From: Escherichia coli
GTDB taxonomy: Bacteria; Pseudomonadota; Gammaproteobacteria; Enterobacterales; Enterobacteriaceae
DNA length: 64,000 nt
Assembly (NCBI RefSeq): GCF_009931435.1
Contig: NZ_CP043414.1
Reading direction: 5' to 3' (one strand)
The notes below the pieces were generated by a model, which was not told where the DNA came from, did no database searches, and saw only the letters and a program-made list of their open reading frames with translations. Positions 5,426-6,670 of this stretch are shown here, piece by piece. The translations under genes were made by a program, and so were the position numbers. Each line of letters begins with the position of its first letter. Position 1 is the first letter of the stretch.

Positions 5426-6670
5426 CTATAGCTGTTTATTCCAGAGATGCTTGAAAATATCTAATGTGGAGACAACATTGGCAGGCGACATTCGGTTTAA
5501 TGAGGATAGAAAGGGATGAGACTCCAGGAAGTTGATAAAACGAGTCGCGCTTGCTAACGTCGAATACCGCATTTCATTTGCTTTCTTGTTTCCTGTAAGG
5601 TTACAAACAGCCATTGAATAATCACGGGCGGAAAATGCACGCCAGACATTATTTCTCACGCCACCACTCAAAAACAACCGCGGCGGCGTATCATAATGAG
5701 TCGTTTTCTCGCCGCGTTCTTTCACAAATGAAATATGGCACCGGCCTTGATGAATATGCTGTAAATTAGCCATTAGACAACCGCCTAATATAAAGCACTC
5801 GTGATCAAGGTAGTGTTGAATATTTATAGAATATGCTTCAGTCAGTACTCTAACCAGTTCAAAATGGCGATACGCCGGAAGAACAGGTTTCACCAGCATC
5901 CCCGGATCGTTTTGATGTAATATCGCCCGACCATAATCAATATCAAATAAAGTATCACGTCGCATAGTAAGTAACTCCTTGCGTTGTACGTGATGCGCCA
6001 GTGTACCTGGAGACAAACGCTCTTCATAACTTGATGCATATTGATAATGCGACTCTACCGCTGATGAAGAATAATTTGTTGAAATAGCGACGACTCTACC
6101 GCTTTGTTCTTCTGCGGTAACAAGACTATAAAGATAGTTGTTACTACCGTTAAACTTTACGCGAAAAGCGCGGGTAGCGAGAGAAATATCAGAAGCAGAA
6201 GAGTACTGGCAACTTTCTTTATAGTTTACTTCCCGGGCTAGTTTCATCAACTCACGGTTAAGCCCTGTGCTATTAAGAAGTAATAATTTACGGATATCTG
6301 CAAGTGAGGCCCCTTGCTCAATCATCAATGCTAAATGTGTTCTTCGCGGCGTTGTATTTACATGATCCAGAGTGATAAAAGTTCTGGAACAATGATGATA
6401 ATACATTCTCCTCTGGCCTTGTGCAGAATATCCATATTTTTTGAGGGACGTGCCTCCGCAAGTTGAACATTGGCAAATCAAACCTCTCCAGGAGTGATTC
6501 ACAATATTACGATAAATATTAAGCGACTGTTCAGATATCACTGGAAACAAGTAACCACATTCACGGCATAAAATATTTTTACCCTGTGCGACATAATCCT
6601 GGCTATTCAGCACCCCCAGGTTTTTACATCCTGGTGTTTTGCAACAATCAACATTTACGTTGGTAAACAT
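5426..6670 (-). CDS. cysteine-rich protein with zinc-ribbon motifs resembling IS1/IS1595-type transposase N-terminal domain; function unknown
   Basis: N-terminal CCKTPGC...CRECG and WRGLICQCSTCGG...GQRRMYYHHCSRTF motifs followed by a helix-turn-helix-like stretch; SD GGGAG before ATG at 6670; no CxxxCxxC radical-SAM motif; not present at this position in K-12. Confidence 0.45.
   Translation of the reverse strand: MFTNVNVDCCKTPGCKNLGVLNSQDYVAQGKNILCRECGYLFPVISEQSLNIYRNIVNHSWRGLICQCSTCGGTSLKKYGYSAQGQRRMYYHHCSRTFITLDHVNTTPRRTHLALMIEQGASLADIRKLLLLNSTGLNRELMKLAREVNYKESCQYSSASDISLATRAFRVKFNGSNNYLYSLVTAEEQSGRVVAISTNYSSSAVESHYQYASSYEERLSPGTLAHHVQRKELLTMRRDTLFDIDYGRAILHQNDPGMLVKPVLPAYRHFELVRVLTEAYSINIQHYLDHECFILGGCLMANLQHIHQGRCHISFVKERGEKTTHYDTPPRLFLSGGVRNNVWRAFSARDYSMAVCNLTGNKKANEMRYSTLASATRFINFLESHPFLSSLNRMSPANVVSTLDIFKHLWNKQL

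Follow-up and report, generated by a model that had tools for sequence, protein, structure and literature searches.

The last gene of a sulfatase cluster in the chromosome of Escherichia coli – here called gene X – encodes a cysteine-rich protein that resembles transposases, and raises the question of whether it is an insertion sequence (IS), the remnant of one, or a transposase that its host has put to another use. The gene lies in a stretch of 64,000 nucleotides (contig NZ_CP043414.1, assembly GCF_009931435.1), hereafter the window, which is a segment of the Escherichia chromosome inverted relative to K-12. An earlier note, made from the sequence of the window, had proposed either a domesticated transposase-derived regulator or a degenerate IS remnant. 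Comparison of X with its homologs makes it very probable that the protein is domesticated, non-mobile and possessed of a non-canonical active site, and we hold with moderate confidence that it is a catalytically disabled transposase acting as a DNA-binding regulator of the sulfatase operon.

5426..6670, minus strand: gene X, transposase-like protein of 414 amino acids (aa), stop codon at 5426-5428, single copy in the window.

The cysteine-rich 414-aa open reading frame (ORF) described in the earlier note is present on the minus strand, and the peptides quoted there (DCCKTPGC...CRECG and WRGLICQCSTCGG...GQRRMYYHHCSRTF) are letter-exact. Gene X starts with an ATG 7 nt downstream of a Shine-Dalgarno sequence (GGGAG), the same ATG that is used in the PGAP annotation of the closest E. 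coli genome; the program-made ORF list carries the frame further, to a GTG at 6676 (416 aa). Its close homologs (n=61) are 414-438 aa in length, and in all homologs X is one unbroken ORF, lacking the -1 frameshift of IS1. The domains of the protein are defined here from a family alignment of 59 sequences, which includes X of the window and extends down to 17% identity, and from an AlphaFold2 (AF2) model built on 59 diverse homologs (predicted local distance difference test, pLDDT, 91.2; predicted template-modelling score, pTM, 0.91) that supersedes a poor earlier model from 23 close sequences (pLDDT 62). In the model, ribbon 1, a helix, ribbon 2 and a helix-turn-helix (HTH) are followed by an RNase H-like core at residues 158-414.

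6536..6652, minus strand: zinc ribbon 1, residues ~7-45, ligands C10/C15/C35/C38, from ligand conservation and three short beta strands in the AF2 model.
6371..6481, minus strand: zinc ribbon 2, InsA type, residues ~64-100, ligands C68/C71/[C91]/C94, from hhalign to IS1 InsA, weak NCBIfam matches and Zn_ribbon_InsA.
6398..6400, minus strand: codon 91, TAT (Tyr; Cys in the family), from the family alignment.
6212..6358, minus strand: three-helix HTH, residues ~105-153, continuous with ribbon 2 as in IS1 InsA, from the AF2 model, the InsA alignment and transpos_IS1.
5429..6199, minus strand: RNase H-like (DDE-transposase/integrase) fold with a beta-rich insertion, residues ~158-414.

The ligands of ribbon 1 are conserved in 93% (C10), 93% (C15), 95% (C35) and 95% (C38) of the aligned sequences, and those of ribbon 2 in 86% (C68), 97% (C71), 98% (C91) and 100% (C94), and judged by this conservation the two cysteine clusters are not a product of chance. 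The clusters singled out in the earlier note are real and conserved in the family, with the qualification that the window copy itself carries a tyrosine (Y91) where ribbon 2 has its third ligand. This position is a cysteine in all 58 of the other aligned homologs, and also in the 97%-identical copy of E. coli Rb-50, and the substitution probably represents the loss of a zinc ligand in this particular strain.

Zinc ribbon 2 and the HTH link X to IS1, in which InsA and InsAB′ likewise have a Cys4 zinc ribbon followed directly by an HTH. Aligning the X family profile with IS1 InsAB′ by hhalign gives a probability of 96.3% (E 1.4e-9), with residues 64-145 of X corresponding to residues 4-88 of InsA, and 22 of the 59 family members match Zn_ribbon_InsA in Pfam (best E 4e-8). 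Weak matches to Zn_ribbon_IS1595 occur in 18 of the 59 (best E 0.0036), none of them the window protein. The window sequence taken alone has no Pfam match, scores below threshold with the NCBIfam models transpos_IS1 (E 8e-4 over residues 70-153; 19.3 bits against a cut-off of 100) and IS1_IS1595_Zn (E 2.8e-3), matches IS256_N_4Cys weakly in its N-terminal part at ribbon 2, and yields just three PHROGs matches (E 0.095-0.18). The likeness to the N-terminal zinc ribbon and HTH of IS1/IS1595 transposases suggested in the earlier note is therefore clear at the level of profiles, though sub-threshold for the single sequence; of the hidden Markov models named alongside it, DDE_Tnp_IS1595 matches no member. 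By homology and modelling, the InsA-like ribbon and the three-helix HTH (helices 108-119, 123-130 and 134-153, with pLDDT >90) form the predicted DNA-binding domain of X. InsA is itself a DNA-binding transcriptional repressor, and offers a precedent for a zinc ribbon-HTH module as a regulator.

The remainder of the protein has a different affinity. Its modelled core runs beta1-beta2-beta3-alpha-beta4-alpha-beta5-alpha, with the beta-rich insertion and C-terminal helices, which is the topology of the RNase H-like superfamily, and its best structural match is ISCth4 (PDB 6XG8), a transposase of the IS256/Mutator family. Other structural neighbours include further transposases, Argonaute PIWI and EndoV. 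The catalytic folds of X and ISCth4 are similar, but X has no detectable sequence similarity to the catalytic domains of ISCth4 and IS1249-type relatives, its acidic triad is not conserved, its insertion after beta5 is beta-rich in the model, and neither element ends nor mobility are seen. A PDB sequence search with the C-terminal profile gave no match, ISCth4 included; PDB sequence matches to C2H2 zinc fingers were driven by the cysteine pattern, and were set aside as spurious. An hhalign comparison of the C-terminal domain with an IS1 (InsB) alignment gave a probability of 0.35%, against an IS1 profile that is shallow because the IS1 homolog search returned close IS1 variants only. By these searches the C-terminal domain of X belongs to no Pfam family. 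Since it has no sequence link to InsB and its best structural match is an IS256-family protein, the attribution to IS1/IS1595 is valid for the N-terminal module only. The transposase ancestry proposed in the earlier note is nonetheless borne out, by the InsA-type ribbon and HTH as well as by the RNase H-like DDE-transposase fold obtained from structure prediction.

The positions at which a DDE transposase carries its catalytic acids are largely substituted. At the centre of beta1 is T166 (81% Thr and 14% Ser), after beta4 is P262 (97% conserved), and after beta5 is E291 (100% Asp or Glu), the sole acidic triad position family-wide, which is preceded by H290 (88%). DDE models of Pfam match no member of the X family, including the longer or odd matches of the family search, and PF03400 (DDE_Tnp_IS1) matches none of the 59. 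Classical two-metal DNA cleavage and strand transfer by X appears unlikely, because the D-D-E triad is replaced by a conserved Thr, Pro and His-Glu. Other residues are strongly maintained: H269 and R238 are invariant among the 59 members, and H290/E291, Y246, W343 and N411 nearly so. Such conservation would also be expected if X were still an enzyme – a nuclease, recombinase or nucleotide-processing enzyme with a non-canonical site (H269, H290, E291, R238, Y246) on its RNase H-like scaffold, acting on DNA, RNA (e.g. the 3′-untranslated region (3′-UTR)/terminator element described below) or nucleotides. The presence of Argonaute PIWI and EndoV beside transposases among the structural neighbours fits this proposal, as do the nucleotide/nucleoside theme of the family neighbourhoods and the sequence-conserved RNA element just upstream of X. 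We consider it unlikely, given that two of the three canonical metal ligands are missing, that X matches no nuclease or defence family, and that its genetic partners are variously periplasmic, membrane and cytoplasmic, which is easier to reconcile with a pathway regulator than with a single-substrate enzyme. PADLOC anti-phage defence models matched neither X, nor its paralog X2 (see below), nor P0072; the sole match for P0098 in that scan was PDC-M44A (0.018, 13 bits).

An ordinary or decaying IS of the IS1, IS1595 or IS256 type, landed by chance at the end of the sulfatase cluster, would account for the zinc-ribbon similarity of the N-terminus to these transposases and for the label 'IS1 family transposase' given to relatives in some databases. 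X and its two neighbouring genes constitute a variable island, in place of which island-free E. coli have ~115 bp of unrelated sequence between the same flanks.

~5412..~9455, no strand: variable three-gene island (porin, sulfatase, X), from the nhaA upstream region to sokC/mokC, defined by comparison with island-free E. coli 55989.

Repeat searches found no IS-type terminal repeats or target duplication flanking either gene X or the whole island, in agreement with the earlier note, and nothing corresponding to the 23-bp inverted repeats of IS1. A 13-nt perfect inverted repeat at 5353-5365 and 6786-6798 might be taken for IS ends, but its inner arm lies in the nhaA upstream backbone, which strain 55989 also has although it lacks the island, and the major E. 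coli allele does not contain the pair. The two island junctions, at 5389-5403 (GATTAATTAGGAAAA) and 9452-9466 (GATTAATTACGCAAA), carry an imperfect direct repeat of 15 nt (13/15) that is probably due to chance.

The distribution of X is likewise unlike that of a mobile element. The region is present in 1275 of 5426 complete E. coli genomes (~23%), each time once and at the same site, and X occupies one place per genome in the 1224 E. coli genomes examined. Among the matches examined there are no true plasmid or phage copies; close copies so labelled are in records of 0.8-4.9 Mb or in draft contigs and are mislabelled pieces of chromosome, and paralogs so labelled lie beside metF-katG/metL and are likewise chromosome fragments. 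The position of X with respect to the sulfatase is constant over ~22 species, whose copies have intact frames and identities of 35-97%, and across Escherichia X has no stops and a ratio of nonsynonymous to synonymous substitution (dN/dS) of 0.10-0.19, compared with 0.02-0.04 for the sulfatase, such that X is clearly under purifying selection, though less tightly than its neighbour. Together with the absence of a DDE triad and of DDE model matches, these observations effectively refute the reading of X as an ordinary or decaying IS, which we find scarcely credible. Of the two proposals in the earlier note, the degenerate IS remnant is rejected, and domestication is favoured by the single copy, the lack of ends, the selective constraint, the strict synteny with the sulfatase and the non-conserved triad; neither a confident match to another characterised family nor intact IS termini were found. 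X further departs from IS1 in its extra N-terminal zinc ribbon, its single 414-aa ORF, its lack of similarity to the InsB catalytic domain, and its syntenic, non-mobile state.

What, then, does a domesticated transposase do at the end of a sulfatase cluster? The two other genes of the island encode a periplasmic sulfatase and a Tsx-like porin.

6799..8292, minus strand: periplasmic sulfatase, 497 aa, with Ser at the formylglycine position (PLSSPSR), from Pfam Sulfatase (3.4e-59) and motif comparison.
8313..9074, minus strand: Tsx-like/OmpK porin gene, a pseudogene here, with codon 6 changed from CGA to TGA at 9057-9059.

X is the last member of this cluster, as first noted, and it tracks the sulfatase through ~22 species of ~10 genera of Enterobacteriaceae – Escherichia, Salmonella, Citrobacter, Klebsiella, Kluyvera, Kosakonia, Phytobacter, Buttiauxella, Franconibacter and Scandinavium. 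Wherever a close homolog has sufficient flanking sequence, it comes directly after the sulfatase, in some cassettes with an anaerobic sulfatase maturase (anSME) in between, and the porin gene is either upstream of or divergent from the sulfatase. Most cassettes outside of Escherichia have a maturase gene (TIGR03942, 534 bits) between sulfatase and X, 24-33 nt from X, and the order porin-sulfatase-maturase-X is kept at three or more different chromosomal sites.

This arrangement suggests a second possible role, as an accessory factor for sulfatase maturation or export: a rubredoxin-like (4-Cys, Fe) protein that donates electrons to the radical-SAM maturase or serves as its scaffold, or a cytoplasmic protein that holds the unfolded sulfatase. 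The short distance between maturase and X in most genera is in keeping with such a role, the two 4-Cys knuckles could bind Fe as well as Zn, and one distant homolog adjoins another radical SAM/SPASM gene. X also resembles the AtsB/AslB anaerobic sulfatase maturases in its operon neighbourhood, its cysteine content and its cytoplasmic location – proteins that were themselves historically mis-annotated as 'arylsulfatase regulators'. Unlike them, X has no CxxxCxxC motif among its 14 cysteines, as had been observed in the earlier note, and no Radical_SAM or SPASM match in Pfam or NCBIfam, and in other genera the true maturase is the separate gene upstream. The maturase has been lost, leaving remnants of differing size, in at least five lineages (Escherichia, K. 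spallanzanii, K. oxytoca, Phytobacter massiliensis and Kluyvera intermedia), in all of which X is kept under purifying selection; neither sulfatase nor maturase is close to the paralogs and Vibrionaceae relatives, which reside beside genes for 5′-nucleotidase, phosphorylase or NupC. The retention of X without a maturase and the occurrence of paralogs without sulfatases weaken the maturation proposal, the InsA-type DNA-binding HTH behind ribbon 2 also speaks against it, and we judge it quite unlikely.

At the formylglycine position (motif region 7873-8172), across loci L001-L039, every Escherichia locus encodes Ser (PLSSPSR), and all other genera encode Cys (PLCSPSR). The Ser-type sulfatase of Escherichia has lost its adjacent anaerobic maturase, yet it is under strong purifying selection (dN/dS ~0.03). 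K-12 matures Cys-type sulfatases; X as the Cys-type formylglycine system of E. coli was considered and rejected, as K-12 is without the island. One or two aryl-sulfate sulfotransferase genes and a 5′-nucleotidase-like gene are found with the cassette in several genera besides Salmonella and Citrobacter, as well as in those two (locus L004, 404-3730 and 9376-11091; L012, 9301-11055; L036, L037 and L039, ~3200-5100), a hint that the substrate of the cassette may be a sulfated, possibly nucleotide-linked compound.

The promoter regions of the cassette are otherwise unalignable between genera, yet they share a common module composed of a conserved element (Box 1), a spacer of 29-31 nt, a CRP-like site, a further ~20 nt, and a -10 hexamer.

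9233..9257, minus strand: Box 1 (AAAATCGACACACTTTTTGAAACAC), candidate X operator, from promoter comparison.
9186..9201, minus strand: CRP-like site TGCGA-TCTCCA-TCACG, 31 nt downstream of Box 1 and ~20 nt upstream of the -10, from promoter comparison.
9160..9165, minus strand: putative -10 hexamer TATACT of the cassette promoter, from promoter alignment and sequence.

The family consensus for Box 1 is AAAACAACAT-N4-YTGACAC. The CRP-like site has the perfect form TGTGA-N6-TCACA in Buttiauxella, both Franconibacter species and Scandinavium (described in one account as four genera), while Kosakonia and Phytobacter have an N8 variant of it. The module travels with the cassette, and where inversion of the porin gene gives two divergent promoters (Salmonella, Citrobacter and K. 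spallanzanii) it is present at both of them, e.g. at 4660-4760 and 4880-4990 of locus L004. A loose pattern for Box 1 plus the CRP-like site has one match in the window, at the cassette promoter only. Identification of Box 1 as a second CRP site, or as a site for DeoR, CytR, FNR or ArcA, was rejected by eye for inconsistent half-sites and spacing.

A second conserved feature lies between the sulfatase and X (between sulfatase and anSME in other genera).

6721..6751, minus strand: intrinsic terminator hairpin, with 7 stem pairs showing compensatory changes in 14 species.
6752..6785, minus strand: 3′-UTR element TATGCCAYTTAGGGCnnTGCCCGCC with a small GGGC/GCCC hairpin, before the terminator, from sequence conservation.

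The element and terminator (6721-6785) follow the sulfatase stop codon in all 14 species, and an Rfam search found no family for them; the element could act on the downstream genes by attenuation or give rise to a small RNA from the 3′-UTR. Because the conserved terminator precedes X, the gene, and the maturase where present, is probably expressed at a low level by read-through, and a dedicated promoter for X is argued against by the ~50 nt from terminator to X, which are not conserved even within Escherichia.

These features can be assembled into a model for X as a domesticated regulator. X retains the DNA-recognition end of a transposase, comprising the extra N-terminal zinc ribbon, the InsA-type ribbon and the HTH, together with an RNase H-like body in which the acidic D-D-E triad has been replaced. 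As the last gene of a catabolic cassette encoding a Tsx-like porin, a periplasmic sulfatase, an anaerobic maturase (lost in Escherichia) and X, it would be made at a low level through read-through of the terminator behind the sulfatase gene. Its zinc ribbon and HTH may then bind a cassette-specific operator, with Box 1 at about -90 as the candidate, and X together with CRP at about -41.5 would jointly turn the cassette on or off. The RNase H-like domain, in its disabled state, may serve in oligomerisation, in sensing of a small molecule – possibly the sulfated or nucleotide-derived substrate – or in both. The comparisons show the domain anatomy, the missing triad, the purifying selection, the synteny and the conserved promoter module. 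DNA binding by X, the identity of its operator, its cooperation with CRP and its sensing of a ligand are all features that we infer, and of the domesticated regulator described in the earlier note it is the domestication that stands on direct comparison, with regulation an interpretation.

Several considerations weigh against this model. Binding of X to DNA at all, or to Box 1, is itself something we infer, and Box 1 could belong to another factor, as its direct-repeat form loosely recalls ArcA-type sites. A gene at the end of an operon behind a terminator is less typical of a regulator than a divergent gene would be. The HTH appears not to be essential to the core function of the family, because a paralog in the metL-metF interval has no HTH at all. 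T166 and P262 were equated with the Asp positions of the triad by the order of secondary structure and not by three-dimensional superposition, and the conserved H269, H290/E291, R238 and Y246 could constitute a non-canonical active site or a ligand site.

There are precedents for nuclease-dead, transposon-derived regulators and domesticates, including the TnpB-derived TldR repressors and eukaryotic SETMAR/Metnase. X differs from TldR in deriving from a DDE-type protein and not an RuvC-type TnpB, and in having no guide RNA, and its regulatory role is predicted from context. Domestication of DDE transposases is well documented in eukaryotes, and rarely in bacteria.

The X family extends well beyond the sulfatase cassette. 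A family profile search of 1.8 billion representatives gave 454 matches, with full-length members of 400-530 aa, and named members come from Vibrio, Thaumasiovibrio and Raoultella, where they are annotated as 'hypothetical' or 'IS1 family transposase'. A 5′-nucleotidase-like gene is divergent from an X relative in V. taketomensis, Salmonella, Citrobacter and E. coli; in V. aquaticus the relative is downstream of a 5′-nucleotidase; in Thaumasiovibrio and one metagenomic genome it is downstream of or adjoining a PNP/UDP nucleoside phosphorylase; and nupC is divergent from another. These neighbourhoods are varied but have a single scavenging theme and are often divergent, which is the pattern expected of pathway-specific regulators. 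No convincing Box 1-like motif was found beside the Vibrionaceae or metL-metF paralogs, and CRP-like sites are all that they have in common.

The metL-metF paralog, X2, is ~375-390 aa long and 22-26% identical to X, with both zinc ribbons and no HTH (L043, 6983-8107; L044, ~7001-8130; L045, 7001-8176). It is divergently paired with an UshA/CpdB/SoxB-like metallophosphoesterase gene in Salmonella, Citrobacter and 1701 of 5426 complete E. coli genomes, and the short region between the two genes contains a perfect CRP site and two conserved inverted repeats.

We tentatively suggest that the X family as a whole, which spans Enterobacteriaceae and Vibrionaceae with at least 454 clusters at 50% identity, may constitute an unrecognised class of bacterial one-component regulators born from a DDE transposase, with an operator-reading zinc ribbon and HTH, a catalytically disabled RNase H-like domain turned into a sensor of sulfated or nucleotide-derived metabolites, and cooperation with CRP over periplasmic scavenging modules (sulfatase, UshA/SoxB-like phosphoesterase and Tsx/NupC uptake); this generalisation is possible but somewhat doubtful. 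We found no paper on the X protein or the sulfatase cassette, and with no Pfam family for its C-terminal domain X appears to be new as a host-domesticated transposase. Database entries for the family currently read 'cytoplasmic protein', 'hypothetical' or, in error, 'IS1 family transposase', and its recognition would put right the IS mis-annotation of thousands of enterobacterial and Vibrio genomes. It would also provide a candidate specific regulator for a widespread and unstudied sulfatase cassette, which Salmonella, Klebsiella and Citrobacter share with ~23% of complete E. coli genomes; sulfatases are important for growth on sulfated glycans of the host. X is further a tractable bacterial model for the reuse of a transposase body after loss of its catalytic residues, and is linked to two other puzzles: the Cys-to-Ser formylglycine switch with maturase loss in Escherichia, and the conserved 3′-UTR/terminator element.

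In the window itself the system is probably impaired. The porin has TGA at codon 6 where E. coli Rb-50 has CGA, and because X carries the C91Y substitution in addition to this stop, the cassette may be decaying in this strain, although the X family overall is under selection. The leftover porin ORF (197 aa, GTG start) would be without a signal peptide. Alleles of X within Escherichia differ by 3-20% in amino acid sequence, compared with 2-4% for the adjoining sulfatase. The window allele looks like a mosaic, with its N-terminus resembling the common 419-aa allele and the remainder the Rb-50 allele, and its codons 76-105 have a best nucleotide match of ≤91% among complete E. coli genomes.

The genes flanking the island are as follows.

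11160-13076, minus strand: dnaK.
9941-11101, minus strand: dnaJ.
9536-9688: sokC/mokC, Rfam sok.
4008-5174, minus strand: nhaA.
3043-3966, minus strand: nhaR.

Further along, three successive plus-strand ORFs (115, 91 and 318 aa) at 489-2033 are fragments of a fimbrial usher gene. The syntenic usher gene is annotated in E. coli Rb-50 with a frameshift and an internal stop, and in 55989 as partial.

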